DNA of 48,836 bases from positions 1 through 48,836 of the forward strand of contig JBGSLA010000019.1 in assembly GCA_041740935.1 (NCBI GenBank). Reading direction: 5' to 3'. How positions within the stretch are numbered: position 1 is the stretch's first letter; each line of letters starts with the position of its first letter. Shown here in pieces: positions 9,515 through 46,380 of this stretch. The notes beneath the pieces are model-generated. The model was not told where the DNA came from. It saw only the letters and a program-made list of their open reading frames with translations, and searched no databases. Position numbers and translations under genes: made by a program. Source of the DNA: Desulfobaccales bacterium. Its GTDB lineage: Bacteria > Desulfobacterota > Desulfobaccia > Desulfobaccales > 0-14-0-80-60-11.

Positions 9515-10486
9515 TCAGCCGCCGAGGCTGACCATGGACCGGCCGGCATGGTGGGAAGAGGTCGAGGGAAATCCGGCTTTCATGAGCATGGCTTCCTGGA
9601 ACCGGGAACTCAAGAAGGCCGTATTGCGGCCCTGACGGAGAGGCTCTTTCAGATCGATCTCGGCATCGGTCAGCAGGCAGGGGCGCAACTTTCCGTCCGC
9701 GGTGAGGCGCAGGCGGTTGCAGGTGCGGCACCGGTGCCCGTTCAGGGGGCTGATGAAGCCCAATTCCCCCTGAAACCCCGGCGCCTTAAAAATTCGGGCC
9801 GGACCGGCGCTGGGCTCCCGGGTTGACGGCATAAGGGGCCCCAGCACCGCAAGCCGCCGCCGCACTTCGGACAGGGGCAAAAAATGGCGCTGCCACCATG
9901 CCTGGGACACGGTGGGCATCAGCTCGATGAAGCGCACCTGCCAGGGATGCTCCCGGGCGAGCCTGGCCACATCCAGCAGTTCATCGTCATTGACCCCCCG
10001 CAGGGCCACGCAATTTATTTTGAGCGGGGCAAAACCGAGAGACGTCGCCCGCTTAAGCCCTCTGAGCACCTCCGGCAAGTAATCCCCGCCGGTGATCTGC
10101 CGGTAGCGTTCCCGTCGCAGGGTGTCGAGGCTGACATTGAGATGCCGCAGACCCGTGTGGTAAAGAGCCGGCGCCAGTTCCCGGAGCAGCACGCCGTTGG
10201 TGGTCAGACAGACTTTGGTGATGCCGGGAACCTCATGCAGCTTGCCGAGAAAATCCACCAATGAACGGCGGAGGAGCGGTTCGCCGCCGGTAATCCGGAC
10301 CTTGGCAAGGCCCACCTCCCCGGCCACGGCCGCCAGGCGCAGCATTTCCTCATAACTCAGGAGTTCGCCGGCCGACAGTTTTTGCCAATCACGCCAATAG
10401 GTGCAGTACCGACAGCGCAGATTGCAGCGGTCGGTGACGGACAGGCGCAGGTAATTGATCCTGCGGGGGCCGGCTGCGGTTCCCAT
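9515..10486 (-). CDS. moaA: GTP 3',8-cyclase MoaA (radical SAM)
   Basis: 323 aa. INYLRLSVTDRCNLRCRYC motif and a C-terminal second Cys cluster CRTCNRLRLTADGKLRPCL. Confidence 0.9.
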   Translation of the reverse strand: MGTAAGPRRINYLRLSVTDRCNLRCRYCTYWRDWQKLSAGELLSYEEMLRLAAVAGEVGLAKVRITGGEPLLRRSLVDFLGKLHEVPGITKVCLTTNGVLLRELAPALYHTGLRHLNVSLDTLRRERYRQITGGDYLPEVLRGLKRATSLGFAPLKINCVALRGVNDDELLDVARLAREHPWQVRFIELMPTVSQAWWQRHFLPLSEVRRRLAVLGPLMPSTREPSAGPARIFKAPGFQGELGFISPLNGHRCRTCNRLRLTADGKLRPCLLTDAEIDLKEPLRQGRNTAFLSSRFQEAMLMKAGFPSTSSHHAGRSMVSLGG

Positions 10487-10489
10487 GAT

Positions 10490-11521
10490 TTAGGCGCCTT
10501 TGCCGAAGGGGCAATGGGGGTAAGCGCAATCCGGGCAGTCCCGGCACAGGCCCCCGTGTCCCAGGAGGGCCAGGTCCTTTTTGCCGAGGCGCTCCCCCGC
10601 CAGAATCCGGGGCAGCACCAAATCCAGCACGGTCACCGGATGGTGCAGGGCGCAGGCCGGCACGCCGAGCAGCGGCACCTCCCCCAGGTAGGCCACCAGG
10701 AACATGGCGCCGGGGAGGACCGCGGAGCCGTAATGCATTTCCGTGGCCCCGGCCAGGCGGATGCCGTGGCGGGTGACGTCGTCCGGGTCCACGCTCAGGC
10801 CGCCGGAGAGCAGCAGCAGGTCGCAGCCCTGGGCCAGATGGCTGCGAATGGTCCGGGCGATGGCCTGGGCGTCATCCGGTAAGAAATCCACTGCCGCCAC
10901 CGACGCCCCCAAGTCCTCGACCTTATTGGTGAGAATGGGCACGAAGCGGTCCTGGATGAGGCCGTGATAGATTTCGTTGCCCGTGATGATGAGGCTGGCT
11001 CGAGCCGCCCGCAGTCGCCCGACGGCAAGCAGGCCACCGCCGGCGCCGGCCAGGGCCACGGCCCGTTCAATGGGGGCCCGTTTCATCACCAGCGGGATGG
11101 CCCGGGTGGCCGCGACCTTTTCCCCTTTTTTCACCAGGGTATGGTTGTGCAGGCTGGCGCACATGACTTCATCCACCAGGTTGAAGGCGGCCAGGGCCGG
11201 GACATTCACCCGGAGCAGGCCGTCCCAGGCGGCGTGCAGGTTGATTTTGCCCTCCCGGGGGTTGTTTTCCCAGACCACGCCCTCTCCGGCCAGGGCGCCG
11301 GCCAGGAGCGCGGCGGCCTCATTTTCGTGGATTTCATCCTCCTCCAGATCCAAAACATAGAGGTGGTTCTTGCCCAGGCGCTGCAGACGGCAGAGGTCCT
11401 CTTCACAGAGGTTGTGGCCCTTGAGGAAGGCCGGGCCTTTGAACTCACCCGGGCGGATTTCAGTGATATCGTGGGCCAGGGTGTGCCCCACGGCGTCTTT
11501 GAGTTCGATGACTTTTTTCAT
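10490..11521 (-). CDS. Molybdopterin-binding (MoCF_biosynth-type) protein with Cys-rich C-terminus
   Basis: 343 aa. The central LLLSGGLSVDPDD block is typical of MoaB/MogA/MoeA-type molybdopterin-binding domains. C-terminal CRDCPDCAYPHCPFGKG. Confidence 0.65.
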   Translation of the reverse strand: MKKVIELKDAVGHTLAHDITEIRPGEFKGPAFLKGHNLCEEDLCRLQRLGKNHLYVLDLEEDEIHENEAAALLAGALAGEGVVWENNPREGKINLHAAWDGLLRVNVPALAAFNLVDEVMCASLHNHTLVKKGEKVAATRAIPLVMKRAPIERAVALAGAGGGLLAVGRLRAARASLIITGNEIYHGLIQDRFVPILTNKVEDLGASVAAVDFLPDDAQAIARTIRSHLAQGCDLLLLSGGLSVDPDDVTRHGIRLAGATEMHYGSAVLPGAMFLVAYLGEVPLLGVPACALHHPVTVLDLVLPRILAGERLGKKDLALLGHGGLCRDCPDCAYPHCPFGKGA

Positions 11522-12264
11522 GTCAGGCCTCGTAAGCGTCCCCTCGCCGCCGCCGGCCGGCGAAGGTCCTTAGCTGAAGCGGTTTGCGCCGGTATCCCGG
11601 CATAAGGGGACCAATCCATGTCCGGCCAGGCGATTTCCCGGGGTTTGCGAAAATAGGCCCCGTCGGCGCAGGGGCGGCAACAGGGGCGGCCCTCCACCAT
11701 AATTTCCCGGCCGTCCCGCACCACCTGGCCGCAGGCGGCGCAGGCCACCTGGCGTCGGGTGGGCCCGGGCAGGTCAAACTCGGAGAGATCCACCTCCACC
11801 GCCTGGACCCGGAACAGAGCGGCATCCGGCATAACCTTGTAGGCCAGGGTCTGTTGCCGCCGGCGATCCGGCTCCCCCGGGGCGTAGACCGCGGCCAGCT
11901 CCCGGGACTCCTCGGTGGAAATAATCCGCAAGCCCTGACCGGTCTCCAGGTTCACCAGGGTGGCGGCCATGATGCCGTAGTCCATGAACTTGAGGGAGCG
12001 CCGCCCCAGCTTGACGTTGGTCACATGGGCCACCGCGTCCCCGGTGCAGCGATCCATTTCCACAAACACGATGAGCCGTTTCAGTTGGGGCAAGGTGGGG
12101 GGCGCCTCAAAACCCAGGAGCCGCAGGCCCAACACGGCCAGCCTCACGCCCACCACCTGCCCCGGGCACAGATGACCGTGCGCGGCCACCGAGCCGGCCA
12201 GGAGTTCTTCAAAGTGTTCCGGCGTTATCTGCATGGCTTGCCATCCCTGTTTTGCGGTCCCCAC
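11518..12264 (-). CDS. FmdE-domain protein
   Basis: HGHLCPGQVVGVRLA motif plus a C-terminal zinc-ribbon-like CAACGQ...CCRPC. The start could instead be the Met at 12234. Confidence 0.7.
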   Translation of the reverse strand: MGTAKQGWQAMQITPEHFEELLAGSVAAHGHLCPGQVVGVRLAVLGLRLLGFEAPPTLPQLKRLIVFVEMDRCTGDAVAHVTNVKLGRRSLKFMDYGIMAATLVNLETGQGLRIISTEESRELAAVYAPGEPDRRRQQTLAYKVMPDAALFRVQAVEVDLSEFDLPGPTRRQVACAACGQVVRDGREIMVEGRPCCRPCADGAYFRKPREIAWPDMDWSPYAGIPAQTASAKDLRRPAAARGRLRGLT

Positions 12265-12276
12265 TTCGCCCGCAGA

Positions 12277-15200
12277 TCAAACTTTGACCAATTTGACCTG
12301 GCTTTGATAAAAGACGGCGCTGCCGCCGGTGAGGTCCACCAGTCCGGTGTTCTTGAGCACCGGGTCCACCCGCATGGCGGCGTTGGCGTGGACGCCGGTG
12401 GCCCGCCGGGGGTCTCCGGGAACCAGCACCCCGTCAATGACCACATCGCTGGAGCCGTAAGCCCAGTGGCCGCCCCCCAGGGAAAAGGCGATGACCCCGG
12501 GCCTTATGCCCTCGGTGATGCGGACCTGGCCGATCATGGGCTTCTGGTGGCCGGCGGCGAGATTCCAGGTACCTTCCTCGTTGGAAGGGGAGATTACTTT
12601 TACCCGGTCGCCATCGGCCAGCGCCAACCGCCTTGCGTCTGTGGGGGAAATGTCAATGGTGTTATAGGGGTACACGGCCTTGGTCCAGTAATTCCCCGGT
12701 GTCCGGGATTTGGTCTGGGTGATGTGTTTATAGGTGAGCAGGGTGAGGTCGTACCCCTTGGCCTCGTCATCCAGTTTGCGCCCCAAAACGTCCACCGGCC
12801 CCTCCATGAAGTGGCCATGGCCCACATAGGGCTTGCCGGTCATGGAGTTCTTGGTGGTTACAAAATTTTCCATGTAGATGCCCACCATCTTGCCATATTT
12901 GTTGGTCAGCTGGCCATTCTTGTAGGCTTTCTGGTACTCCTGGAAGCGGCCTCCCCGGTTCAGGACATAGACCACCTGGGGCCACCAGTCGTCGCCCACC
13001 ACCGCCCGCCAGCGCTTGGCGTCATAGACCGTGGGCGGCAGGTGTCGCCTGGCCTGTTCGAGGATTTTCAGTTCTTCGGGACCGGCCGCGGGCACCTTTT
13101 CGGAACCGTCGGGCTTGTCGCCGCAGGCGATGTTAGCCACCATGCGGAGATACATATCCTCTTCCCGCTTCAGATGGAGTCCGGGTCCGAAAGCGTTATC
13201 CCCGAAGCCCGGCAACTTCATCTTTTCGGCGATCCCCAGGACCAGGGACTCGGTGGACAGGGGCATCTTTTCACCGAAGACGGTGACGGTGTCGGTGAGG
13301 GGCGCCGCGGCCGGCTGGCGGAAAGGGGCCACCTTGGGGGTGACCGAAGGGTGCGAGCCGGAGAATTCCCAGCGCTCCAGGTACGTTATATCCGGGAAGA
13401 TATAGTCAGCATACATGGAAGTTTCGCCGATGACGATGTCTGAGGCAAAGATCAGGGGAACTTTCTTGGGATCGGACAAGATTTTTATGAGCTCATGCCC
13501 GGCGGGCAAGGCGTACACCGGCGAGGCCTGGTAGAACATCAGGGCCTTGATCGGGTAAGGATAAGCATCCCCCATGCTGGGGATGACCTCCTGATAAATG
13601 TCGCTGGAGAAGGGATACCAGGGCCGCTTGGCCGGGTAGCCCTTAAACAGGGTGGACTTTTCATACTTCTTGCCATGCCGGATGATGTCCACCCCCCAGG
13701 TCTTGATCTTGCCGGGATGGGTTATTAGGTCAAAAGGTTTGCCTTCTTTGCTGCCGTCGATGTTATAGGTGGTGGCCTTGGCCAGGCCGCCCTGCCAGTC
13801 GTGGTTGCCCAGGAGCACATTCAGGGTCATGAAGATGAGCACATTGTAGAACCCCGAGGTGTGCTGGGAGACGCCCCGGTGGATGTCGGCCACCGCCCTT
13901 TTGCCGTGATTGGTGAATTCCCGGGCCAGGTCGACCAGGTCCCGCTCCTGCACCCCTGCCAGTTGGGTCCATTCGGCCGGTGTTTGGGCGTTGGCGGCCT
14001 CCTTGTAAATCTGCAGGACGCTTTTAACCTTGTGGCCCTTTACTTCTGTATCTACCAGGAGGTCCCCTTCCACGGCGGCGGTTTCGCTGTTGGGGTCAAA
14101 GGGGACGGGCTGGCCGCCTTTCATGACCAGGAAGGGATCGAATTCCCACTCCCCCCCCTCTTTCATGGGACGCTTTTCCTTGGGGAGGCCGATATCCGAA
14201 CCTCTGAGAAAAATCCCAGGGGTGCCGTCCGGGTTGATCTTTACCAGCCAGGCCGTTTGGGTCCAGGTGGGCTCGTTGTCGGCCATGGCCGCGGCCTTGT
14301 TGGCGTTGGCCAGATAGCGGGCGTCGTAGCGCTGGTTCTCGATGATCCATTGCATCAGGCCCATACCCACGGCCGCGACCCCGTTGGACTTGATGGGCAG
14401 CCACCTCCAGGCCCGGGCCGCGGTTTTGGAACAGCGGGGATCCACCACCGCAATGCGCATGGTGCCGTCCACCAGGCCCTCGGTCACCTTCTGGGCCCTG
14501 AGGGGCGGCCCATAATTGGCCTCGTAAGGATTGGCCCCCACAAAGAGGATGAACTCGGGGTTGCCGGTGTCCGCCTGCCAGTAGAACTTGCTGCCTTTGG
14601 TAAACTTCCCTTCCACGAACTGGTCGCTCATGGCCTTGCAGGTGAAGTACAGCGACCCCTGGCAGACAGTGGTGTGGCCGTGGGCGTTCACCGAGCCCAG
14701 GGCCGCCACCAGCCGCTTCAAAATATCAGACCGGCCCCCTTTCAGGCGGCCCCAATTAAAGCAGAACTGATTGTTTTTAGGGCCAAGATCCGGGTGGTCC
14801 GGGTCAATGAGATACTTTAGATTGTCCTGGTGTTTGGCCTTGAACGCGGCCAGTTCCATCTTTTTGGCAGACACCAGCTCGGCGTCTGCCGCCATCTCCT
14901 TGGCTATCTTGCTGTCCCGGAGGAGGCAAATATCCTTCAAGCCCTCCACCTGGCCCTCGCCGAAGAGGTTGCCGCCGTTGACGATCTCGGTAATGGCCTG
15001 GTCGAAGGGAATAGTCTGCCACTTGTTTTCCCCCCGTTTGCCGGCCCGTTTGAGCACCTTGACCAGGCGGTAGGGGTCATACAGGGCCTGGATGCCCGCC
15101 TGGCCCTTGGGGCAGAGGGAGCCTTCCATGGTGGCGGCCTCGGCAATGGGGGTCTTGTAGGGAATCTGCGGCGTCATGGTCCAGGGACTATAGGGGTTGC

Positions 15201-15495
15201 CGTCGATTTTGGCCGCCAGCCCATCCACGAATTTCACCTTGATGCCGCAGTTGGTGTTGCACTGCTGGCAGACCGACAGAATTTGATTTTCCGGGCGGTA
15301 GTGCACATAAGCGTCGCCCACGTCCAGAGCCGTCCAATCGGCGGCGCTCATGGCTTGCGCAGCCCGGGCCAGATAGTGGGACGCAGCCAGTGAGCCCCCC
15401 AGCAAGGCCGAACACTTGAGAAAACCCCGCCGATCTATTTTGGCCTCGATAAGTTCTCTCATCTCCTGAGTGGGGTTGGTATTCGTCTTAGACAT
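12277..15495 (-). CDS. Tat-exported molybdopterin (bis-PGD) oxidoreductase catalytic subunit, TtrA-like
   Basis: 1072 aa. Twin-arginine signal DRRGFLKCSALLGG. FS0 motif CQQCNTNC...C. The blocks KRAGKRGENKWQTIPFDQAITEIVNGGNLFGEGQVEGL and MQWIIENQRYDARYL match my recollection of Salmonella TtrA. Confidence 0.85.
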   Translation of the reverse strand: MSKTNTNPTQEMRELIEAKIDRRGFLKCSALLGGSLAASHYLARAAQAMSAADWTALDVGDAYVHYRPENQILSVCQQCNTNCGIKVKFVDGLAAKIDGNPYSPWTMTPQIPYKTPIAEAATMEGSLCPKGQAGIQALYDPYRLVKVLKRAGKRGENKWQTIPFDQAITEIVNGGNLFGEGQVEGLKDICLLRDSKIAKEMAADAELVSAKKMELAAFKAKHQDNLKYLIDPDHPDLGPKNNQFCFNWGRLKGGRSDILKRLVAALGSVNAHGHTTVCQGSLYFTCKAMSDQFVEGKFTKGSKFYWQADTGNPEFILFVGANPYEANYGPPLRAQKVTEGLVDGTMRIAVVDPRCSKTAARAWRWLPIKSNGVAAVGMGLMQWIIENQRYDARYLANANKAAAMADNEPTWTQTAWLVKINPDGTPGIFLRGSDIGLPKEKRPMKEGGEWEFDPFLVMKGGQPVPFDPNSETAAVEGDLLVDTEVKGHKVKSVLQIYKEAANAQTPAEWTQLAGVQERDLVDLAREFTNHGKRAVADIHRGVSQHTSGFYNVLIFMTLNVLLGNHDWQGGLAKATTYNIDGSKEGKPFDLITHPGKIKTWGVDIIRHGKKYEKSTLFKGYPAKRPWYPFSSDIYQEVIPSMGDAYPYPIKALMFYQASPVYALPAGHELIKILSDPKKVPLIFASDIVIGETSMYADYIFPDITYLERWEFSGSHPSVTPKVAPFRQPAAAPLTDTVTVFGEKMPLSTESLVLGIAEKMKLPGFGDNAFGPGLHLKREEDMYLRMVANIACGDKPDGSEKVPAAGPEELKILEQARRHLPPTVYDAKRWRAVVGDDWWPQVVYVLNRGGRFQEYQKAYKNGQLTNKYGKMVGIYMENFVTTKNSMTGKPYVGHGHFMEGPVDVLGRKLDDEAKGYDLTLLTYKHITQTKSRTPGNYWTKAVYPYNTIDISPTDARRLALADGDRVKVISPSNEEGTWNLAAGHQKPMIGQVRITEGIRPGVIAFSLGGGHWAYGSSDVVIDGVLVPGDPRRATGVHANAAMRVDPVLKNTGLVDLTGGSAVFYQSQVKLVKV

Positions 15496-16723
15496 GCTTC
15501 GCTTCTCCTTTCCCCGCGCTGATCACCGGCAGCCACCGGGAACCCAACAGAAAGGCCAGCAATCCCAGGGAGAAAACCCAGAGGCTGACCAGCCATTCGG
15601 TCAGGTTGGGAAAATACTCCGTGGTGCGCAGGCGGTGATGATAAAAGGTGGCTTCCAGCCCCTCCAGCTTGTACACCGCCTGATCCGGGATGACAAAGTT
15701 CAGGCGCACCGCGATGAAGGTGATGATAATCAGAAAACAGGCCCAGGCCACCACCTTGGCATTTTGATGATGCACCGCCAGGAGGTACAAGGGAATGGCG
15801 CTGCCGATGAGCAGATGGACGATCCAGAACACCCACCAATACGGCCCGAACACGATAATGTCCAGGCTGGCTTTGGTAATGGGAAGCCCGGTGCGGTAGC
15901 CCACAAAAAACTGCAGCAACTGCAAAAAGAGAAAAACCACCAGGAGGAAGCGCACCACGTGCCCCAGGTAATGCACCAGCTCATCGTCAGCCTTAAAGAT
16001 ATAGGTGAGAAAGGTTATGAGGGCCCCACCCGACAGCAGCGCCGTGACAATGAACAACAGGGGCGTGAGGGCGCCGTTCCACAGGGGGCGGTTGAGCAGA
16101 ATGGCGAAAATGGCGCCGTTGATGCCGTAAAAGATCAGCCCCACGGGCAGACTCAGGATGGACAGAAAGCGCACCCGCCTGTGGTCCGCCTCCCGGTCCG
16201 CCTCGGTGAACCCGGTTTTCCCGAAGGACAGGAATCTATAGAGCCCCCTGGCCGGTCGTCCCTCCTCCTGGGACCACTTCACCAGGTCCTCCCGGAGCAG
16301 GAAGTAACACTCCAGCAGATAGATGAGGATCATGGCGTTGGTGAAGACCACCATCCAGAAAATCATGGAATACCAGCCCGGGCTGAGGAGAAAGCGGTAG
16401 GCCCGGAAGAAGTGCCCCAGGTCAAAGCTGATGATGATCACCTCGCAGGAGATGGCCACCAGCACCGTGAAGGCCGATAACGGGCCGATGGGGGCGAAAA
16501 TTTTCACCCGAAAGACATAGGTGAGGATGGTGATGAGAAAGGCTCCGGCGGTCAGGCCCAGGAAAAAGAGATACACCGCCACCCACAATCCCCAGGGGAC
16601 GTAGGACCCCAAGTCGGTGGCCCCTTTTCCGAACCACATGGCCTGAAACACCCCCCAAAAACCTATCACCAGGCCTATGATCGCCAGGGTCAGCAACGTT
16701 TTGTAATAGCGCTCGGTTGGCAT
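15488..16723 (-). CDS. NrfD/PsrC-family integral membrane quinone-interacting subunit (TtrC-like)
   Basis: 411 aa and very hydrophobic, with about 10 predicted helices. It overlaps the catalytic subunit start by 8 nt. Confidence 0.8.
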   Translation of the reverse strand: MPTERYYKTLLTLAIIGLVIGFWGVFQAMWFGKGATDLGSYVPWGLWVAVYLFFLGLTAGAFLITILTYVFRVKIFAPIGPLSAFTVLVAISCEVIIISFDLGHFFRAYRFLLSPGWYSMIFWMVVFTNAMILIYLLECYFLLREDLVKWSQEEGRPARGLYRFLSFGKTGFTEADREADHRRVRFLSILSLPVGLIFYGINGAIFAILLNRPLWNGALTPLLFIVTALLSGGALITFLTYIFKADDELVHYLGHVVRFLLVVFLFLQLLQFFVGYRTGLPITKASLDIIVFGPYWWVFWIVHLLIGSAIPLYLLAVHHQNAKVVAWACFLIIITFIAVRLNFVIPDQAVYKLEGLEATFYHHRLRTTEYFPNLTEWLVSLWVFSLGLLAFLLGSRWLPVISAGKGEAKHV

Positions 16724-16740
16724 ACTTCTTTCCCCTTCCC

Positions 16741-17496
16741 TTATTTCAGGTAAGACACGCTCGGCTGGGTGCCCAATTCTTCCTTGAGCCGAAAAATCCG
16801 GGGGGAACCCATATTCTCAAAAACCAGACTTTGGGGATCGGTGCGGTCCCCGAAAATGGTGGCCCGCCCCACACAACTGGTGACGCAGGCCGGCAGCATG
16901 CCCACCTTCAGACGATGCAGACAGAAGTGGCATTTGCGGGCGTTGCCCATGGGCGAGCTGCCTTTGGCCCGGTTGGGCCATTGCTGGCCGTATTCCGCCG
17001 CGGGGCGCAGTTCATAGCCGTCCCGGGCGGCCTGGCGGCCGAACAGGGTGCCCGGCTCCTCCGGGGTGTCGGCGGTGTACCACTCCCCGAAGTCGGAGGT
17101 GCGGGCCGCGTAGGGGCAGGCCACCAGGCAATACCGGCAGCCGATGCAGCGGTTGTAGTCCACGATCACCGCCCCCTGCTCGGTCTTCCAGGTGGCGGTG
17201 ACCGGGCAGACCTTGGTGCAGGGGGGATTCTGGCAATGGACGCAGGGTCGCGGCGTAAAACGCCGCCGCACCGAGGGGTAATGCCCCACCTCCTCCTCCA
17301 GCACCACCCGGTACACCACCCCCGGGGGCAGTTTGTTCTCCGCCACGCAGCTGATGGTGCAGGCATGACAGCCGATACACTTGGCGAGGTCGATAACCAT
17401 GCCCCATCTGATGTCCTGGGGCTTTTTGTTGAGAGCCCGTTTCAGGTCCCGCTGCATGCGGACTAACAGGTCCTCCTGAGGCAAATCCTTTGACAT
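16741..17496 (-). CDS. Four-cluster 4Fe-4S ferredoxin subunit (TtrB/PsrB/DmsB-like)
   Basis: 251 aa with [31 protein letters not shown] and CHFC...C motifs. Confidence 0.85.
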
Positions 17497-17516: not shown

Positions 17517-18371
17517 CTAAACTTTCTCCCCTTCCGGCCTGGCCGCGCGGTCGTTCCCCGATCTCATCAAGCCCAGGGCCCGGGTAAGTTCCAGGGCCAC
17601 GCCCATCCCCGCCTTAACCTCTTTGCCCATCAGGCGGAAAGGCAGGCCCAGGGGGCCCACCGGCCGGGCCGCGTCCAGATCCACCCTGGCCGGCACGTCC
17701 GTCAGCCGGTCCAGAAACTCGATGACCCGGGGGTCGGCGAATTTTTTGACCATGCCGTGCATGCGCACAAAGCCGTCGCCTATGGCCTCGATATCCTCTG
17801 GCTGATACACCGAGGCCAGCTTGGCGTACATATCCACCACAGCCTCCACCGAGCGGAGAACCACAGGGTCGGCGAACTTCTTGACTATGCCGTGCATGCG
17901 CACGAAACCGTCGCCGATTTCGTCGATGTCCTCAGGGGAATAGGCCGACGCGAGCTTGCTGTACATGGTGAGGATGGCCTGGTTGATGCGGAAGATGCCC
18001 TTCTGCTCCAGGTCGTCCAGCTTGTCGATGATATGGGGCACCGCGATCTTCAGGAGGGGCTCCACATCATGCCACCAGTCGATGAGGTTCTCCATCTGCT
18101 CCAGGGACCAGGCGAGGTGCCGGAAGCTCAACAGCAGTCTTTTCAGGAGAACAACGACGTCTTCCAGCTGAAAGCCGGTCTCCACCTCCGCCAAGCCGTC
18201 AGTGAGGAGTTTGGCCCCGGGACCCATGAGGAGGGCAAAATCCCGTCCCAGATCGGACAGGCTTTCCATGGGATCGGCCATCTTGTTCACCTGTGCTTCC
18301 AGGCGGGCCAGACGATCCAATTTCTCCTCTATTCTCGCCAAACGCTCCTGGATCAGGCCTTCGTCGGACAT
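17517..18371 (-). CDS. DUF1641-like protein with an internal tandem duplication
   Basis: Start at ATG 18371 behind an AAGGAG RBS (MSDEGLIQ...). N-terminal coiled-coil. Two 45-aa repeats of the form ...[26 protein letters not shown].... It sits next to an SQR/NDH-2-like flavoprotein, as is typical for DUF1641. Confidence 0.6.
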
Positions 18372-19642
18372 GTCAATCTCCTTTGCCTGAGCGGCAGTTC
18401 CACATCGGGAGACAGGATGCCCCGCACCTTGCCGGCCATGACGAACTGGGATTCCAGGGGCAAATGGCTGCCTTTCAGCATCAGATTGTAATAAACCCAA
18501 CGGAACATCATCTTGCCCATGTAGTTGGTAAAACTCTCTCCCAACAGATCAAAGGGCCCCAGGCCCGGGAAGGGAAACTTCCCCGGCAGGGGTTCAATCT
18601 TAAAATTGAAATCCAGCAGCGACCCTTTTTCGTAGCCGGTGACCACATAGCAGGTGGCGTGACCGTCATATTTCGGCAGCGGCGGGTGCCCCTCGATCTC
18701 CCGCTGGAGATTCTCCGCCACCACATCCGCCTCATAATGGGCCACCGCCCCGGCCTTGGAGGTGGGCAGGTTGGCCGCGTCGCCGATGACATAAATATTT
18801 TCAAAATTTTTGGCCCGCAGGGTATGGTGATCGGTGTCCACATAACCCATGGGATCGCCCATGTCGCTGTCGATGACATATTGGGCCCCGAAATTGGGGG
18901 GGATGGAGATGAGCAGGTCGTAGTTCACCTCCCGGCAGTCATAGCCCACGATCACCTTGCGGTTCGGGTCCACGCTGGCCAACTGGAAATTTGGGGTTAC
19001 CTTAATGTTTTTGGTCTCGCACAGCTGGCCCAAAATCCTGGAAGCCACCGGTTTGGTGAAGACCCCGGGGAGGGGGGTGGCGAGCTCGATTTCCACGTGG
19101 TCCCTGAGGCCATTGACCGAGAAAAACCAGTCCGCCATAAAGATGAATTCCAGGGGCGCCACCGGACACTTGAAGGGCAGTTCGGCGATGTTCAGCACCA
19201 CCCGCCCCTTGTCGAAGTATTTGAGCTTCTCCCGCAGGGCCAGGGCCCCTTCCAGGGTGTAAAAGTTGTGGATGTCCTGCCCCCAGCCCTCCATGAGGCC
19301 TTCCACCTCGGAGGGCACAATGCGGCAGCCCGAGGCGATGACCAGGAAGTCATAGGGAAAGGTGTATTGCTTGGTCTTGACCTGCCTTTTGTCCGGATCC
19401 ACCCCTTCAATTTCATCCAGCACGAAGTTGACCCCGGGCGGCACAAACTTGGTCCTGGGCTTGACGCAATCCTCCCTGTTGTAGATGCCGAAGGGAATGA
19501 ACAGCCAGCCGGGTTGGTAGTGGTGCTCCCAATCCCGGTCAATGACGGTGATGTCCCATTCCCGCTCCGGCAGCTGCTGCCGCATCTTGGTGGCAATGAT
19601 GGTGCCTCCGGTGCCGTGACCCAAAATAACCAACCTTTTCAT
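18353..19642 (-). CDS. FAD-dependent pyridine nucleotide-disulfide oxidoreductase, sulfide:quinone reductase-like
   Basis: 429 aa. N-terminal Rossmann motif RLVILGHGTGG. A second dinucleotide-fold block is present. The overall layout is SQR/NDH-2-like. Confidence 0.7.
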   Translation of the reverse strand: MKRLVILGHGTGGTIIATKMRQQLPEREWDITVIDRDWEHHYQPGWLFIPFGIYNREDCVKPRTKFVPPGVNFVLDEIEGVDPDKRQVKTKQYTFPYDFLVIASGCRIVPSEVEGLMEGWGQDIHNFYTLEGALALREKLKYFDKGRVVLNIAELPFKCPVAPLEFIFMADWFFSVNGLRDHVEIELATPLPGVFTKPVASRILGQLCETKNIKVTPNFQLASVDPNRKVIVGYDCREVNYDLLISIPPNFGAQYVIDSDMGDPMGYVDTDHHTLRAKNFENIYVIGDAANLPTSKAGAVAHYEADVVAENLQREIEGHPPLPKYDGHATCYVVTGYEKGSLLDFNFKIEPLPGKFPFPGLGPFDLLGESFTNYMGKMMFRWVYYNLMLKGSHLPLESQFVMAGKVRGILSPDVELPLRQRRLTCPTKA

Positions 19643-20040
19643 GATCCCACCTCTCTTCCCGTTGGGGATTCGGTTTCAGACAGATTCTCCGCGATGGTTT
19701 TCAGCCAATACCCCAGTTCTTCCGTGTCCAACGGCTTCACCAAACAGGCATAAAGGGAGCCGATGACGTCTTCCCGTCCCGGGTGGTAGGCCAGACTGGA
19801 TATTCCCAATATATGCAGCCGGGGATGGCTCCTCCGCAGGGTCCGGAAAAACTGCTTGTCGGCCGCTATGGTGTCCAGGTCCAGGATGACCGCGACGTCT
19901 GAGGCCTCCTGAAGGGTGACCTGCAAGTCCTCCAGGGAGGTCAGCAGCCTGGCGGCATAGCGCCTGGCGCCCAGGAGTCCGCACAATTGTTTGCCGTCCT
20001 GCCGATCTCCAGTCACCATAAGCACGAGAGGCTTGCGCAT
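19639..20040 (-). CDS. Stand-alone receiver (REC)-like domain protein
   Basis: 133 aa from ATG 20040. VILDLD (candidate phospho-Asp), ILGISS and LVKPL follow the receiver layout, but the N-terminal acidic pair is TGD rather than DD. ATGA overlap with the next gene. Confidence 0.55.
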   Translation of the reverse strand: MRKPLVLMVTGDRQDGKQLCGLLGARRYAARLLTSLEDLQVTLQEASDVAVILDLDTIAADKQFFRTLRRSHPRLHILGISSLAYHPGREDVIGSLYACLVKPLDTEELGYWLKTIAENLSETESPTGREVGS

Positions 20041-20091: not shown

Positions 20092-20106
20092 GCAATTTCT
20101 GTGCCT
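20092..20106 (-). promoter_or_regulatory. Sigma54-type -24/-12 promoter
   Basis: The minus strand reads AGGCAC-AGAAA-TTGCC, with the consensus GG-N10-GC spacing. It lies about 50-65 nt upstream of ATG 20040, and a sigma54 activator gene is adjacent. Confidence 0.55.
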
Positions 20107-20382
20107 ATTAGGTCAACACATTGAAATATCATGTAAAATAGTTTTTAACAGATTGAGATCAGGAAGAGCTGCGGTCTTAGGAGAGCCGATTACAGGCTGG
20201 AAAAAGATTAACTTATTGATTTAACAAGATATATTATTGTTATTTTTGTGAACCGCCTCTCCCCCGGCTGCGGACATCCTTAAGACACATCATCACGATA
20301 TTTAAGAATTTTAAAGAGATAGCCATGTCCGAAATATGGACACGGCAACAAAGCAGGCGCACACAGCGGGTGGAGTGAGGCT

Positions 20383-22575
20383 TTAATGGGTGGTGGGGTC
20401 GGAATTGGGGACCTTGTGCCGCTTCAAGATGGCGTACACCGTGCTGCGGCTTATACCTAAGCGCTTGGCGGTGAGCTTTTTATTGCCCCCGGTTTCTTTG
20501 AGGATTTCCAGCAGAGTCTGCAACTCCCGTTCTTCCATGGTGGGGGGCGACATGGGCGCCTGCTGCCGCAGGGCCGCAGGGAAATCCCAGGCCTCCAGTT
20601 GGCTGCCCTTGGCCAGGACCACGGCATGTTCCAGGGAATTCTCCAGCTCCCGGACATTTCCGGGCCAGGGATATTCCAGGAGGAGGCGCATGGCCTCGGA
20701 GCTTATATCGGTGATGTCTTTGCGCTGTTCTGCGGCGAAGCGGCGCAAAAAGTGGAGGGCCAGCAGGGGGATGTCGTTTTTGCGCTCCCGGAGCGACGGC
20801 AGCTGCACGGGGATGACCTTGAGGCGATACAGGAGGTCCTCCCGAAAATTGCCCCGCTCCACTTCCTGCAACAGGTCTTTGTGGGTGGCGGCCAGGAGGC
20901 GCACGTCCACGCTCAGCGTCTTTTCGCCCCCCACCCGCTCAAACTTGCGGCTCTGCAAGACCCTGAGGAGCTTAATCTGGGCGGTGGGCGGCATTTCCCC
21001 CACTTCATCCAAGAAAACGGTGCCTCCCTGGGCCAATTCGAAGCGCCCCGGCTTCTGGCGGATGGCCCCGGTGAAGGCGCCCTTCTCATGTCCGAAAAGT
21101 TCACTCTCCAACAGCGCGGCGGGATAGGCCGAACAATTAATGACCATGAAAGGTTTGTCCTGTCGGGGACTGAACCGGTGGATGGCCCTGGCCACCAACT
21201 CCTTACCGGTGCCGCTCTCCCCTTGAATCAGGACGGTGGCGTCGGTGGGCGCCACGTCCTCGATGAGTTTGTATATGGTTTGCATCTTGGGGTCTCTGCC
21301 GATGAGCTCACCAAACCCGGCCGCGGCTTCCACCCGGCCCCTGAGACCGCCCACCTCCTCCTCGTGGACCATGGCCCGCCCCAGAGCCCCGGCATTCTGA
21401 TTCAGGATGAGCCCCAGCCACTGTATTTTCTCGGGATGGCAGTCGCAATTCCCCGGACAGGCGACCACCGCAGCGCCCACAATCTGGCCGTCAGTAAAGG
21501 GAATGTGGGCCTGACGTTCCATGGCGGGGAAACTTTCCGGGACCAGGGGTGATCTCAGGAGATTCTTCCGGGTAAAACCCGGTTTGGTCAGCCTCTCCAA
21601 AGTTGCCTGGGCGTTTTTGATCGTCTCGGGATCTCTCAAAGAAACCAGGCCGTGGTCCGAGATGATAAAAAGGGTATCCCGGGCGGCATTGAAGGCCAAA
21701 AAAGATACATGGGAGCAGGGCACCTGGTCTTTGAGCTTTTCCAAGAGAAAGGCGCCCATTTCCTTCAAGGTCCCCAGGGCGCTGATTTCCCGGACAATCT
21801 GGCAGGCGGCCCGGGCCTGTCCATAAGCCCGCTCCAACTCCTGGGTCTGCTCCTCCAGGCGACGGGTGTAATCTTCCTGGCGGGCCACCATCTGGTTGAA
21901 AGAGCCGGCCAACCGGGCTATTTCAGCCTGTCCTTGCACGGGCACCCGCACCTCCGTCATCCCCTGGTCTATTTGCCGGGTGGCCTCCACCAGGGTGGCC
22001 AGGGGTCGGGTGATGCGCCTCACAAAGAAAAGGCCGCCCACCATGGCAGCCAGGAGAATGCCCAGGGTAAGCAGGCCGATCTGCAGCCACAGGGACAGCA
22101 CCTGCCGCCGGTAATAGGATTCCGAGAAACCGACCCGCAGGACTCCGGCTTTGCCCTCGAATATCGGCCAGGCCGCGTCCAGAAAAGGTTCTCCGCCTTT
22201 GGAGGCGATGGCTCGAAGTTCAGGCTTCTCCACCGAACCGGGTTGACTGGCCGCCACCAGACCGGCCGGCACCCCTTTTTTAAAGGTGTGGGCCAGGATG
22301 CGGCCTTCCCTGACCACAAACAGGTAGCCCAGGCCCGGATTGCTATGCATTTGCTGATCCAGCAGCTTTTGGAGACCCACCCTGTCGTTGATGAGAATCC
22401 GGTCGGCGGCCTCCAGGGCCACGGCATGGGCCAGGTTTTCCGCCTGGCTCGACAGGGTGGCCTGCAAGGCAGCGCTGTAACGTTGGGTGACCAGGAAGGC
22501 GATGGCCAGACCGCTGAACACCACCAAAAAGGCGATGGCCGCCAAGAGACTACTCTTGAGGGTGCGAAACCCCAT
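20383..22575 (-). CDS. Membrane-bound sigma54-dependent transcriptional activator (periplasmic domain-HAMP-GAF-like-AAA+-Fis HTH), no receiver domain
   Basis: 730 aa. Two TM segments bracket a periplasmic domain of about 150 aa. HAMP-like segment follows. [15 protein letters not shown] (Walker A), [15 protein letters not shown] (GAFTGA motif), and C-terminal [19 protein letters not shown]. Confidence 0.9.
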
Positions 22576-23503
22576 GACTCTCTTCCTTGATCCGGGCCAG
22601 CCCCTGATATTTCAACCGGATGGCCTCATACCACGCCTCCTGGAGGGGGACAAAGCGGTCGATGAATAGTTCCTGGAGAATTTTCTCCCCTTCCGGGTCC
22701 TGGTGCATGCTGAAAAGCACCTGTTGCAGGCGCTCATGATCGTCCGGCGGCAGCCGGCCGGAGGTGACCAGGGGAGGGATGCCGAAGGGCTGGGACTTTC
22801 TGATTATTTTGGTGCGGGCGGTGAACTCCGGCTTTTTTTCCTGATAATATTCATAGATCAGACTATCCACCGCGGCGCCATCCACCAATTCCCGGGAGAC
22901 CGCCAGGATGGCGTTGTCGTGACTATAGGTATAGATGGTCTGGCTGAAAAAGGTTTCCGGTCGCTCCTGCAGGTCGGCCAGCCAGGCGGTGGGGATGAGC
23001 TTGCCGGTATTGGAATGGGGATCAGTGAAGGCAAAGGTGCGCCCTCGCAGATCTTCCAGCCTGTTGTAGGGACTGTCCTTATTGACGATGAGGAGGGAGT
23101 GGTAGGAAGGGCTGCCGTGGACCACCGGCACGGCCAGGGGCTTAAAGCCAAGGGCCTCCCGGGCGGTGGCGTAAGGGCCGGCGCAGATAAAGGCCACATC
23201 GATGTCGCCCCGCCGGAGGAGTTCATTGATTTCAGCGTAGGTTTGGCGCTGGATGAATTCCAGGTCTTTTCCGGCCCGGCGGCTTAAATATTCCAGGAGT
23301 CGGCGGTACTGGTCGAAGGTTTCCTTGGGGGAAATCATGGCCGCCACCGCCACCCGCAGGGTCGGCTGCCGGGAAGGCTGCTCTTCGGATTGGGCCGCGG
23401 GCACAATCTTGTCGAAATCCACCACCAGCCGGTCCCCATCCCCCCCGCACCCGGCGGCGATGAGCACCCCGACCATGATCAGCATTAACCCAGATATTCT
23501 CAT
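22550..23503 (-). CDS. PhnD-type (phosphonate-binding-like) periplasmic solute-binding protein
   Basis: 317 aa. Signal peptide with lipobox-like [29 protein letters not shown]...[10 protein letters not shown] is typical of the PhnD/Phosphonate-bd family. Overlaps the activator gene by 26 nt. Confidence 0.7.
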
Positions 23504-23564
23504 GGCTATAAAGGGAAATTCCGGCTCCTGGTGGATTCCTTGAACCCTGAAAACACTTTGTACT

Positions 23565-23592
23565 ATTGTAAGAATTTCCCAGGATATTTCAA
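23565..23592 (-). promoter_or_regulatory. Sigma70-type promoter candidate for the binding-protein/activator pair
   Basis: The minus strand reads TTGAAA-16 nt-TACAAT, about 60 nt upstream of ATG 23503. Confidence 0.4.
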
Positions 23593-23811: not shown

Positions 23812-24204
23812 TTAAGCTTCGGGATGGTTCGCCGTCTTTTTCTCCTGATAGTTTTGAATGGCCAGGGCCAGGGCGTCGGCTCCCAGGTTGGAGCAGTGCA
23901 TTTTTTGGGGAGGCAGGCCGCCCAGGGCCTCGGCCACCGCCTTTTTGGTGATTTTCCGGGCTTCGGCCAGGGTCTTGCCCTTGGCCAGAGCGCTTACCAG
24001 GTCGGAGACCGCGATGGCCGCCACGCAGCCAAAGGTCTGGAACTTGACGTCCTGAATGATGTCGTCTTTGACCTTGATATAAAAGGTCATCATGTCGCCG
24101 CAGGTGGGGTTGCCCACTTCACCGACGCCGTCGGCGTCCTCGATGACCCCGGCGTGCTGCGGATTGTTGAAATGGTCCATGACGATATTAGAATACATGG
24201 TCAA
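23812..24204 (-). CDS. nifU: Fe-S cluster scaffold protein, NifU N-terminal/IscU type
   Basis: 130 aa. Contains NPTCGDMMTFYIKV, FQTFGCVAAIA and HCSNLGADAL, the three conserved Cys motifs. Confidence 0.9.
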   Translation of the reverse strand: MTMYSNIVMDHFNNPQHAGVIEDADGVGEVGNPTCGDMMTFYIKVKDDIIQDVKFQTFGCVAAIAVSDLVSALAKGKTLAEARKITKKAVAEALGGLPPQKMHCSNLGADALALAIQNYQEKKTANHPEA

Positions 24205-24628
24205 ACTCCTTGCTGTTCATGGCCTGGGCTTTGTTGACCAGGTCAGCCAGGGTGATGGCCTGCAGCCGCTCGAACATGGCTTCCGAAGCTTCCTTCCAGA
24301 TGAGGCGGGTGGGGCAGCTGTCGGCCCGTTGGCAAACCCCGGCGTGGTCACTGCATTCCACCAGGCTGGTGCCCTCTTCCAGGAGCGCCACGATTTCCCC
24401 CAGGGTAATCTCCCCGGGCGGCCTGGTTAAAATGTGCCCGCCTTTGGGTCCCCGCACACTCTCGATATAGCGGGCCTTTTTCAAAGGGATGATTATCTGC
24501 TCCAGGTATTTCACCGAGACGTCCTGGCGTTTGGCAATGTCCCCCAGTTGGATGGGGCCCTGATTGTAATGCTGGGCCATGTCCAACATCAATCGCGTGC
24601 CGTAGCGGCTGCGGGTGGACAGCTTCAT
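24188..24628 (-). CDS. Rrf2-family (IscR-like) transcriptional regulator
   Basis: Start at ATG 24628 (MKLSTRSRYGTRLMLDMA...). wHTH region plus a C-terminal CSDHAGVCQRADSCP Cys cluster. Confidence 0.85.
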   Translation of the reverse strand: MKLSTRSRYGTRLMLDMAQHYNQGPIQLGDIAKRQDVSVKYLEQIIIPLKKARYIESVRGPKGGHILTRPPGEITLGEIVALLEEGTSLVECSDHAGVCQRADSCPTRLIWKEASEAMFERLQAITLADLVNKAQAMNSKEFDHVF

Positions 24629-24630
24629 GC

Positions 24631-25818
24631 TCAACCTCCTGAGACCGCGGCCATTTTTTTGCGCCACACCGGGGAGAAGGAGCGCAGTTTCTCCACCGCC
24701 GGGGGCAGTTTTTCCAGGACATAATCCACTTCGTCTTCCCGGTTGGCGGCGTCCAGGGTAAAAACCAGGGAGCCCTGGGCGATCTCCGGGGAAATTCCCA
24801 TGGCGCACAGGGTGGGGGAAACTTTGAGGGCCTTGCTGGCGCAGGCCGAACCGGTGTTGGCGAAAATCCCCTGGCTGTTGAGCAGAAAAATCAGGGCCTC
24901 CCCTTCGATGCCCTCGAAGCAGAAGCTGGCGTGGCCCGGCAGGCGCTCCTCCGGATGGCCGGTGAAGAGGACATCGGCGACCCCGCGGTTGATGCCCGCC
25001 GCCAGGCGGTCCCGCAAGGCGCGCAGATAAGAAATTTTCTCCGGCAATTCCCGGTGGACCAGTTCGGCGGCCGCGCCCAGACCGACGATGCCGGGGACGT
25101 TTTCGGTGCCGCCCCGCCGGCCGTTCTCCTGGATGCCGCTGTGAATCTGGGGCACCAGGCGCAGGCCCCGGCGGAAGTAGAGGGCGCCGATGCCCTTGGG
25201 TCCGCCCAGAGCCGGACCGGAGAGGGTCAGGAGGTCAACCCCCAGTTCCTTGACGTCAACGGGCACCTGCCCGGCGGTGGCCACCGCGTCGGTATGGAAA
25301 AGAATACCCTGCTCCCGGCAGATGGCCGACAGCTCGGGGAAGCGCTGAATGGTGCCCATCTCGTTGCTGGCATGTTGAATGGACACCAGGACGGTGGCCG
25401 GGGTCAGGGCCTTTTGCAGCCGCTCCGGCTCCACCTGCCCGAATCTGTTGACCGGCAGAAAGGTGACTTCGAAATCGTGGAATTTTTCAAGATAACGGGC
25501 CGAATTCAGCACCGAATGATGTTCAATGGCGGAGACGATGACATGCCTGCCTTTTTTCAGATGGGCCAGGGAGGCCCCCTTGACGGCCAGATTGTTGGCC
25601 TCGGCGCCGCACGAGGTAAAAATGATCTGCTCCTCGGGAGCGCCGAGGAGCCGGGCCACCTTGGCCCGCTCCGCCTCAATCACCTCTTTGATTTCTGATC
25701 CCAGACTATAAACCGCGGACGGATTGCCGAAACGCTCGGTAAAATACGGCAACATGGCGGTGAGCACTTCCGGCCGCACCGGAGTGGCCGCGGCGTGGTC
25801 GAGATAAACCGTTTTCAT
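24631..25818 (-). CDS. nifS: Cysteine desulfurase (NifS-type)
   Basis: 395 aa. Begins VYLDHAAATP. Contains a class V aminotransferase fold and the active-site loop NTGSACASK. Confidence 0.9.
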   Translation of the reverse strand: MKTVYLDHAAATPVRPEVLTAMLPYFTERFGNPSAVYSLGSEIKEVIEAERAKVARLLGAPEEQIIFTSCGAEANNLAVKGASLAHLKKGRHVIVSAIEHHSVLNSARYLEKFHDFEVTFLPVNRFGQVEPERLQKALTPATVLVSIQHASNEMGTIQRFPELSAICREQGILFHTDAVATAGQVPVDVKELGVDLLTLSGPALGGPKGIGALYFRRGLRLVPQIHSGIQENGRRGGTENVPGIVGLGAAAELVHRELPEKISYLRALRDRLAAGINRGVADVLFTGHPEERLPGHASFCFEGIEGEALIFLLNSQGIFANTGSACASKALKVSPTLCAMGISPEIAQGSLVFTLDAANREDEVDYVLEKLPPAVEKLRSFSPVWRKKMAAVSGG

Positions 25819-46341: not shown

Positions 46342-46380
46342 GGCTACCCTTGATTTGGTGGAAAAAGGAGTTTGCCGTTA

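Follow-up and report, generated by a model that had tools for sequence, protein, structure and literature searches.

The periplasmic binding proteins AioX, ArxX and ArrX form a subfamily with a role in sensing and not in transport, and each is partnered by a kinase, S, and by a regulator, R, which belongs to the sigma-54 activators in the Aio, Arx and some of the Arr systems. The complete XSR systems induce arsenic-metabolising molybdoenzymes (Badilla et al. 2018, PMC5908839). Here, we describe a two-gene cassette in a 48,836-nucleotide (nt) stretch of DNA from a Desulfobaccales bacterium (contig JBGSLA010000019.1; the whole stretch is called the window), where the gene of a free binding protein related to ArrX overlaps the gene of a sigma-54 activator that is predicted to span the membrane, next to an operon for a TtrA-like molybdoenzyme. 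The parts of this system are known, and so is the logic by which a binding protein, a membrane transducer and a sigma-54-dependent molybdoenzyme operon are connected in AioXSR. What is new is the wiring: the chain has no kinase and no receiver, a HAMP-GAF unit would drive an AAA+ domain at the membrane, and a receiver-like protein is encoded inside the operon. To our knowledge, sigma-54 activators are soluble proteins driven by a receiver or a cytoplasmic sensor, and periplasmic signals reach them via a kinase. We consider it fairly probable (roughly 0.6) that the cassette descends from an oxyanion-sensing system of the AioXSR/ArrXSR type and does without its kinase.

The tetrathionate and thiosulfate sensors TtrSR and ThsSR provide a second comparison. 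TtrS carries a PhnD-like periplasmic domain fused to its kinase (Daeffler et al. 2017, PMC5408782), as an earlier note on this DNA, made by a model from the letters, had stated. In these systems a PhnD-like module senses a sulfur oxyanion and controls the adjacent molybdoenzyme operon (ttrBCA), much as would be the case here, and the window shares with TtrSR the B-C-A order of the enzyme genes and a TtrA-like catalytic subunit. In contrast, the window's binding protein is free and far closer to ArrX and AioX, and TtrSR requires phosphotransfer. TtrR is a LuxR/NarL-type regulator and is not known to use sigma-54. The earlier note proposed that the cassette replaces a TtrS/TtrR-type system; because the binding protein is nearest to ArrX and AioX and the sensor half of the activator resembles AioS, as detailed below, we replace this proposal with a probable origin from AioXSR/ArrXSR.

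We compared the 317-amino acid (aa) binding protein with proteins of known structure and found that its best sequence match in the PDB is ArrX of Chrysiogenes arsenatis (6x6b; E 5e-63, 216 bits), followed by AioX (E ~1e-39, 140 bits). The transport proteins PtxB (for phosphite) and PhnD (for phosphonate) score far lower, at 73 and 57 bits. The label 'PhnD-like', used in the earlier note, is correct at the level of the Pfam family (PF12974, of the type II binding-protein fold) and misplaces the nearest relatives; judged by sequence, the protein is a member of the AioX/ArxX/ArrX sensing subfamily and is closer to it than to PhnD. The AioX pocket residues Y88, C106, Y131, S161, H192 and D210 are identical in the window's protein, with S163 changed to threonine (the AioX, AioS and AioR sequences retrieved for comparison are from strain NT-26), and these six columns are invariant in an alignment of the window's protein, six homologues, AioX and ArrX. 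The pocket cysteine, C106 in AioX numbering, is thus kept here; PhnD is without it. Conservation of the pocket does not predict binding specificity (PMC5908839). We also considered whether binding proteins linked to ArrA-like enzymes are nearer to ArrX than those linked to TtrA-like enzymes, and rejected this idea: under an admittedly crude grouping of enzyme types, identity to ArrX is flat, 38-45%, whichever enzyme follows. The N-terminal hydrophobic stretch ends in a cysteine that is kept among the aligned full-length homologues, which suggests that the binding protein is probably a periplasmic, lipid-anchored lipoprotein. NT-26 AioX differs in having an RR-containing signal that resembles those of the twin-arginine translocation (Tat) pathway.

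The binding protein and the activator form a conserved pair. A collection with one genome for each of 185,579 species was scanned with conserved peptides from the activator's sensor half, yielding at least 191 matches; the counts of loci given here are drawn from the best 80 of them, with neighbouring genes mapped by tblastn using the window's proteins. Almost all of the 80 loci come from metagenome-assembled genomes (MAGs) of the Thermodesulfobacteriota, namely Desulfobaccales, Syntrophobacterales, Desulfomonilaceae and Desulfobacterales. At the protein level, more than 100 clusters, ~728 aa long, share the activator's architecture, and a partial copy labelled Nitrospirota appears among the search matches. 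In 79 of the 80 loci, the binding-protein gene or what is left of it is the immediate 5' neighbour of the activator gene: tblastn detects the gene in 73, and another six hold remnants that carry a frameshift or N-masking, are truncated or run off the contig. The one remaining locus begins within the activator gene. Every locus that allows a judgement therefore shows the linkage. In 45 of 76 loci the two reading frames share 17-26 nt, in 19 exactly 26 nt, and the 26-nt overlap in the window, together with both open reading frames (ORFs), is found where the earlier note had placed it.

Such complete linkage argues strongly against a role for the binding protein in a transporter elsewhere, and supports its being a dedicated partner of the activator. 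No permease or ATPase gene of an ATP-binding cassette (ABC) transporter was found among the window's neighbouring genes that were scanned, with the rest of the window scanned in part. The two results agree with the earlier note, which had set its model against a binding protein that belongs to an ABC transporter. Two paralogous cassettes occur within single MAGs, in VGSW01 (loci L005 and L011), isolate JTS-AC162 (L035 and L044) and JABMQM01 (L039 and L048), implying separate specificities or separate promoters in one cell. A 642-aa database protein (P0068) with HAMP and PF12974 matches was considered as a binding protein naturally fused to an activator, and this was rejected: its sequence starts in the middle of the binding-protein domain, continues across the overlap and closes with an out-of-frame tail, so that a frameshift or an assembly error is the probable cause. 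On the other side of the pair, a NifS-Rrf2-IscU (isc-type) cluster (23812-25818, - strand) lies directly upstream of the binding-protein gene and is syntenic in several related loci (L002, L016, L019, L029, L042 and L050).

The 730-aa activator combines a sensor half that resembles those of membrane kinases with a complete sigma-54 output half (Table 1). Its Pfam matches include Sigma54_activat (E 5.5e-72), AAA_lid_14 and HTH_8 (E 7.5e-9); a Walker A motif occupies residues 452-459 (GESGTGK from 452), and the GAFTGA motif at residues 499-504 is retained in 76 of 79 family members. The Pfam scan found Response_reg, HisKA and HATPase_c all absent from this polypeptide. Basic residues flank the two transmembrane (TM) helices on what would be their cytoplasmic sides, MGFRTLK before TM1 and RRITRP after TM2, and fit a topology with the N-terminus inside, the loop outside and the C-terminus inside. 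The periplasmic domain between the helices contains the family-invariant motifs LAHTF..G.P and D.AWPIF.GKAGVLR.G.SE and, together with HAMP, is the best-conserved part of the protein apart from the AAA+ domain. In an AlphaFold 2 (AF2) model this region is a long helix followed by an alpha/beta domain. Beyond the helix-turn-helix (HTH), the protein ends in an unusual conserved tail (..PTTH, encoded at 20383-20400 on the - strand), which reads KPTTH in most of the relatives inspected. Databases name the family generically, as 'sigma 54-interacting transcriptional regulator' or 'response regulator HydG', and a subset of its members bears a precomputed, unconfirmed Pfam label, PF26769.

Table 1. 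Coordinates of the cassette, its regulatory DNA and the adjacent operon in the window (numbered on the forward strand)
Feature	Coordinates	Strand	Size, evidence or remark
Binding-protein gene, ArrX/AioX sensor clade	22550..23503	-	317 aa; PF12974 (Phosphonate-bd), E 1.5e-69
Membrane-spanning sigma-54 activator gene	20383..22575	-	730 aa; 26-nt overlap with binding-protein gene
TM1 (residues 11-29) and periplasmic sCache_3_2 (35-160)	22096..22545	-	Hydropathy; PF17203
TM2 (residues 166-184) and HAMP (183-232)	21880..22080	-	Hydropathy; Pfam HAMP, 51.7 bits
Cytoplasmic GAF-fold domain (~residues 266-417)	21325..21780	-	AF2 model and fold search
Sigma-54 AAA+ (residues 424-590), AAA lid (596-677) and Fis-type HTH (680-719)	20419..21306	-	Pfam
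Candidate enhancer, 17-bp palindrome TGTCCATATTTCGGACA	20326-20342	.	~220 nt upstream of promoter
Sigma-54 promoter (-24/-12), GGCAC-N5-TTGC, GGCACAGAAATTGC	20092-20105	-	GG 65 nt before next ATG
Receiver-like protein, first gene of sigma-54 operon	19639..20040	-	133 aa
Type III sulfide:quinone reductase, Cys form	18353..19642	-	429 aa; NF049943, 661.6 bits, above cut-off
Conserved ORF, no assigned function	17517..18500	-	True start probably downstream of 18353
Molybdoenzyme genes in B-C-A order	12277..17496	-	Pfam, NCBIfam
4Fe-4S subunit gene	16741-17496	-	TtrB, 174 bits (cut-off 416); DsrO marginally higher, 175.8 bits
NrfD-type membrane subunit gene	15488-16723	-	Pfam
TtrA-like catalytic subunit gene, bis-molybdopterin guanine dinucleotide (bis-MGD)	12277-15495	-	1072 aa; best NCBIfam match TtrA, 463 bits
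FmdE-like, MoeA-like and MoaA genes (molybdenum cofactor supply)	9515..12264	-	Pfam; end of the gene string

The region that joins HAMP to the AAA+ domain has no Pfam match (residues 236-425 scanned, GAF included). We modelled these residues separately, with a predicted local distance difference test (pLDDT) of 82 and a predicted template-modelling score (pTM) of 0.72, and the top fold matches of the model in the PDB are all GAF domains: PDE2A (query-normalised template-modelling score, TMq, 0.65), PDE5A, PtsP and Lcd1, with GAF matches reaching TMq 0.66 and E ~2e-4. The model thus supports a GAF fold for the middle domain. The order TM, periplasmic domain, TM, HAMP, GAF, AAA+ and HTH, which the earlier note had read from the translation, and the TM helices and HAMP domain that it had named as a test of its model, are now backed by Pfam, hydropathy and the AF2 fold search together.

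The GAF domain contains four cysteines, Cys287 and the cluster C373-x3-C377-x-C379 (CPGNCDCH, residues 373-380; nt 21439-21459). Of 79 family members, 49 have all four and 77 have C373, while one subclade is without C377 and C379 and retains all else. Because the cluster is not universal, an added input is likelier than a core switch; the cluster may contribute a cytoplasmic redox or metal signal, and the neighbouring isc-type genes could be relevant if it binds an iron-sulfur (Fe-S) centre.

The two halves of the activator have different relatives. When residues 1-235 were searched by HMMER against a set of 1.84 billion representative proteins, 4814 relatives emerged, just 28 of them at 1e-30 or below, and these 28 are this activator family and its fragments. 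The next tier (~30% identity, 75 proteins examined) consists mostly of histidine kinases, with HATPase_c in 66, sCache_3_2 in 71, HAMP in 74 and GAF in about 20-22; it includes two chemoreceptors and two diguanylate cyclases, and Sigma54_activat is not among the 25 families listed for these 75 proteins. In a close relative (P0106), the same sensor (58% identity) is joined to a PAS-kinase output. The N-terminal half also aligns with AioS through TM1, the periplasmic domain, TM2 and HAMP (BLASTP, 25% identity over 216 residues), and a profile of the activator family aligns with AioS by hhalign at a probability of 87% (E 4e-6; residues 14-275 to AioS 20-294). The AAA+/HTH half is 41% identical to AioR across activator residues 431-725. 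Since the next-tier relatives of the sensor half are mostly histidine kinases and AioS is homologous to it, the activator is, by these alignments, a kinase-type sensor grafted onto a sigma-54 output, and the cassette is best read, in its simplest description, as an X-S-R system where the sensor of S has been fused to the output of R with the kinase and the receiver omitted.

By this description, the window shares with AioXSR, ArxXSR and ArrXSR a free binding protein of the same subfamily with a conserved pocket, including its cysteine, and a target operon for a molybdoenzyme of the dimethyl sulfoxide (DMSO) reductase family with a sigma-54 promoter, the enzyme varying by genome. It shares with AioXSR a homologous TM-periplasmic-TM-HAMP sensor, as in AioS, and a sigma-54 AAA+/Fis-HTH output, as in AioR. 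Unlike AioXSR, S and R are here one polypeptide that lacks HisKA/HATPase and receiver domains, a GAF fold joins HAMP to AAA+, and a receiver-like domain forms a small protein of its own, encoded in the target operon. The enzyme of the window also differs from those of all three systems, being TtrA-like and not Aio, Arx or Arr.

This stand-alone protein qualifies the earlier statement that no receiver and no histidine kinase are present: the statement holds for the activator polypeptide and overlooks the 133-aa product of the gene at 20040..19639. In most loci, a homologue is encoded 3' of the activator gene. We aligned 56 family members, of which 51 match Response_reg (PF00072, best 7e-11), 28 the FleQ N-terminal domain and 13 VpsR, and the family profile matches the NtrC4 and NtrC1 receivers in the PDB at ~E 5e-6. 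We call the family receiver-like because of these Pfam and PDB profile matches; an hhalign comparison with the lone AioR receiver sequence was weak (3% probability) and uninformative. The consensus contains a D-x-D in beta1, an LDLD motif with the acceptor Asp, an invariant Ser, a Lys-Pro and, in the alpha4 region, an invariant His-Pro. The window's own copy has no Pfam match when scanned alone, and its beta1 reads TGD where the family has DAD.

A profile built from 75 related kinases detected no histidine kinase in the 48.8-kb window. Among the 80 loci, a kinase occurs within 10 kb in ~5, never at a fixed position. With no kinase in the window and none conserved nearby, the activator's switch is most likely independent of phosphorylation. 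The receiver-like protein, whose gene is the first of the operon, is then most likely a self-induced modulator, providing feedback or an input from a distant kinase.

The 342-nt intergenic region 3' of the activator gene contains two conserved elements. In the window alone, the promoter motif is not above chance (two matches against 1.6 expected). Conservation makes the sigma-54 promoter credible: 48 of 60 homologous intergenic regions contain GGYWY-N5-TYGC, for the most part 50-100 nt ahead of the next gene, and the earlier assignment of such a promoter to the adjacent operon can be kept. A second GGCAC-N5-TTGC match (19593-19606, - strand) coincides with the GxGxxG codons early in the sulfide:quinone reductase gene and is most likely due to chance. 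The 17-bp palindrome occurs once in the window, with 0.14 occurrences expected by chance, and its pattern TGT[CA]-N9-[GT]ACA is found in 41 of 57 homologous intergenic regions compared with 1.8 in shuffled controls, in most loci roughly 200-350 nt upstream of the next gene. By its conservation and position, the palindrome is a good candidate for the enhancer to which the activator binds.

According to the preferred reading, the cassette would work as follows. The lipid-anchored periplasmic binding protein, as the X component, would capture an oxyanion; the likeliest candidate is the one that the downstream TtrA-like reductase uses, or a compound chemically close to it. The loaded binding protein would dock on the activator's periplasmic single-Cache domain, and TM2 and HAMP would carry the signal across the membrane and through a coiled coil to the cytoplasmic GAF fold. 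The GAF domain would then free the sigma-54 AAA+ domain to form an active oligomer. The Fis-type HTH would bind the 20326-20342 palindrome, just 3' of the activator's own gene, and the activator would remodel sigma-54 RNA polymerase at the 20092-20105 promoter into an open complex. Consequently, the operon would be switched on, producing the receiver-like protein, the sulfide:quinone reductase, the product of the unassigned ORF, the B-C-A subunits and the cofactor proteins, and sensing would lead to activation with no phosphotransfer step. This specific route, in which a loaded ArrX-type protein switches a HAMP-coupled AAA+ activator in the membrane, the activator assembles there (for example, three membrane dimers into one hexamer) and draws enhancer and promoter to the membrane, and the split-off receiver serves as a feedback element, is a more tentative proposal than the ancestry of the cassette, and we hold it at somewhat less than even odds.

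The main rival is that the phosphorelay is retained and rearranged. An unlinked kinase, or acetyl phosphate, would phosphorylate the receiver-like protein, which would be required to switch the activator on or off; the receiver would merely have been split off the AAA+ protein, and the system would not be kinase-independent. The position of the receiver-like gene, 3' of the activator gene in most loci, accords with this, as do the beta1 D-x-D, acceptor Asp, Ser and Lys-Pro retained in the consensus, and the best matches are to receivers of NtrC-family proteins, FleQ and VpsR, types normally found on sigma-54 activators. The same gene, however, lies 3' of the sigma-54 promoter, so its product results from activation and is not needed in the first round. 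The altered beta1 of the window's copy, its failure against Pfam when taken alone, and the lack of a kinase in the window or of one conserved near the cassette in the 80 loci also count against a phosphorelay. Moreover, FleQ- and VpsR-type receivers are known to work without phosphorylation. We therefore regard a rearranged phosphorelay as unlikely, at about one chance in five by our own estimate of the evidence.

The signal could also enter at other points of the activator. Small ligands commonly bind directly to the single-Cache domains of kinases and chemoreceptors, and the family-invariant periplasmic motifs could form a pocket, so that the activator's own Cache domain would be the sensor and the binding protein a co-transcribed scavenger, part of a transporter or a modulator. 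Such direct sensing appears improbable, given that 79 of 80 loci keep the two genes together, most of them with an overlap of the frames, that the neighbours scanned include no permease or ATPase gene, and that the ArrX/AioX clade has a documented sensing role without a transporter (PMC5908839). Alternatively, the main input could be cytoplasmic, with the GAF cysteines binding an Fe-S centre or a metal to sense redox state or oxygen and the membrane part serving mainly to localise the protein. The frequent retention of C287, C373, C377 and C379 and the adjoining isc-type cluster speak for this, and a precedent exists in OrpR, a sigma-54 activator of a sulfate reducer with Fe-S redox sensing (PMC8359166). 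The subclade that lost C377 and C379 with the rest retained, and the strong conservation of the periplasmic domain and HAMP, speak against it, and the obligate binding-protein partner would be left without explanation; we consider a mainly cytoplasmic input very improbable.

Returning to a kinase-less derivative of AioXSR/ArrXSR, several observations weigh against it. The sCache_3_2 match on the activator is marginal, at 30.9 bits for a gathering score of 28.4 bits (PF17203). The full-length AF2 model has moderate confidence (pLDDT 75, pTM 0.39), and its fold matches are to AAA+ proteins only, namely ZraR, NtrC1, FleQ and FlrC. Homology between the activator and AioS is moderate at the 87% probability, for the one AioS sequence compared. 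The flat identity of the binding proteins to ArrX across enzyme types makes ligand specificity unreadable from sequence. Cache domains often bind ligands directly, and the binding protein might be dispensable or modulatory. In the co-conserved receiver-like family, the consensus still has the phospho-acceptor Asp together with the Ser and Lys-Pro, which makes input from an unlinked kinase possible. Finally, it is not obvious how a membrane-tethered activator forms an AAA+ hexamer and reaches DNA.

More distant systems share single features with the proposed route. ToxR, CadC and TcpP couple periplasmic sensing to DNA binding within one membrane protein and without phosphotransfer, as the activator would. 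Unlike it, they cross the membrane once, carry an OmpR-type winged helix at the N-terminus and act at sigma-70 promoters, and they have no AAA+ motor, no requirement for a hexamer and no HAMP domain. In TorT-TorS and LuxP-LuxQ, it is a membrane transducer and not a transporter that receives the signal of a periplasmic binding protein (cited in PMC5908839); these binding proteins are of unrelated families, hybrid kinases with a phosphorelay serve as transducers, and the outputs are without sigma-54. NifA, FhlA, NorR and OrpR (PMC8359166 for OrpR), cytoplasmic one-component activators with GAF or PAS sensors, have a GAF-type domain directly N-terminal to AAA+ and no receiver, and in OrpR and NifA a Cys-based cofactor offers a parallel that the window's activator may share. 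In contrast to the window's activator, with its two TM helices, Cache and HAMP domains and extracytoplasmic partner, these proteins are soluble and respond to cytoplasmic signals. The open-access full texts searched describe no membrane-bound, transmembrane or HAMP-containing sigma-54 activator, which is weak evidence of novelty.

The adjacent operon comprises, in order, the genes for the 133-aa protein, the sulfide:quinone reductase, the unassigned ORF, the 4Fe-4S, NrfD-type and catalytic subunits, and the cofactor proteins. The TtrA match of the catalytic subunit is limited to residues 225-1062, and its 463 bits are far below the equivalog cut-off of 1750 (the other NCBIfam cut-offs used are 416 bits for TtrB, 525 for NF049943 and 1600 for ArrA-like proteins); consequently, we label the enzyme TtrA-like, and a link to tetrathionate is unproven. 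Cys331 of the sulfide:quinone reductase (DGHAT-C-YVVTGYEKG) corresponds to an in-frame TGA (DGHAT-U-MVVTGYEKG) in eight related loci (L002, L004, L008, L013, L016, L018, L019 and L029), so the window encodes the Cys form of a predicted selenoprotein. Six of these eight loci contain a second TGA at ~codon 425, aligned with Cys425 in the window (RRLT-C-PTKA), which could be a second selenocysteine and not a stop. The ORF that follows gave no match in Pfam and NCBIfam scans, and in related loci it is found together with the sulfide:quinone reductase gene. The NrfD-type gene, a single copy in the window, is tandemly duplicated between the 4Fe-4S and catalytic genes in L002, L004, L005 and L009. 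The FmdE-like, MoeA-like and MoaA genes are syntenic in many related loci. Farther away, ~23 kb from the cassette, lies a gene for an ArsP_1-family permease (46372-47784, + strand; PF03773, E 1.9e-71).

In other genomes, the cassette precedes TtrA-like paralogues with 36-87% identity to the window's catalytic subunit, ArrA-like enzymes whose full-length matches score 1315-1331 bits (under the cut-off of 1600, though near it) and, at one locus, a PhsA/DmsA-like enzyme. The cassette is therefore not bound to a single enzyme, and is followed by complex iron-sulfur molybdoenzyme (CISM) operons of several types. XSR is likewise a regulatory module that moves between molybdoenzymes (Badilla et al., PMC5908839).

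Across ~190 species-level genomes, the kinase and the receiver are missing from the signalling chain, and a kinase-type sensor and its dedicated binding protein have been kept. If the cassette works as proposed, a HAMP output would drive an AAA+ transcription motor directly, which poses the structural question of how a dimeric membrane receiver builds a hexameric ATPase on DNA, and ArrX/AioX-type sensors would extend past arsenic enzymes to TtrA-like and other molybdoenzymes of sulfur-cycling anaerobes. One-component systems of this kind, with sensing outside the cytoplasm, would form a new class, and the cassette would be a compact chassis on which to build oxyanion biosensors; with two genes and one promoter, it would be easier to transfer than three-gene systems, into a host that has sigma-54. 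For the relatives of sulfate reducers in which this pair of genes is common, it would mean that an extracellular signal can switch on a respiratory molybdoenzyme operon without phosphotransfer.

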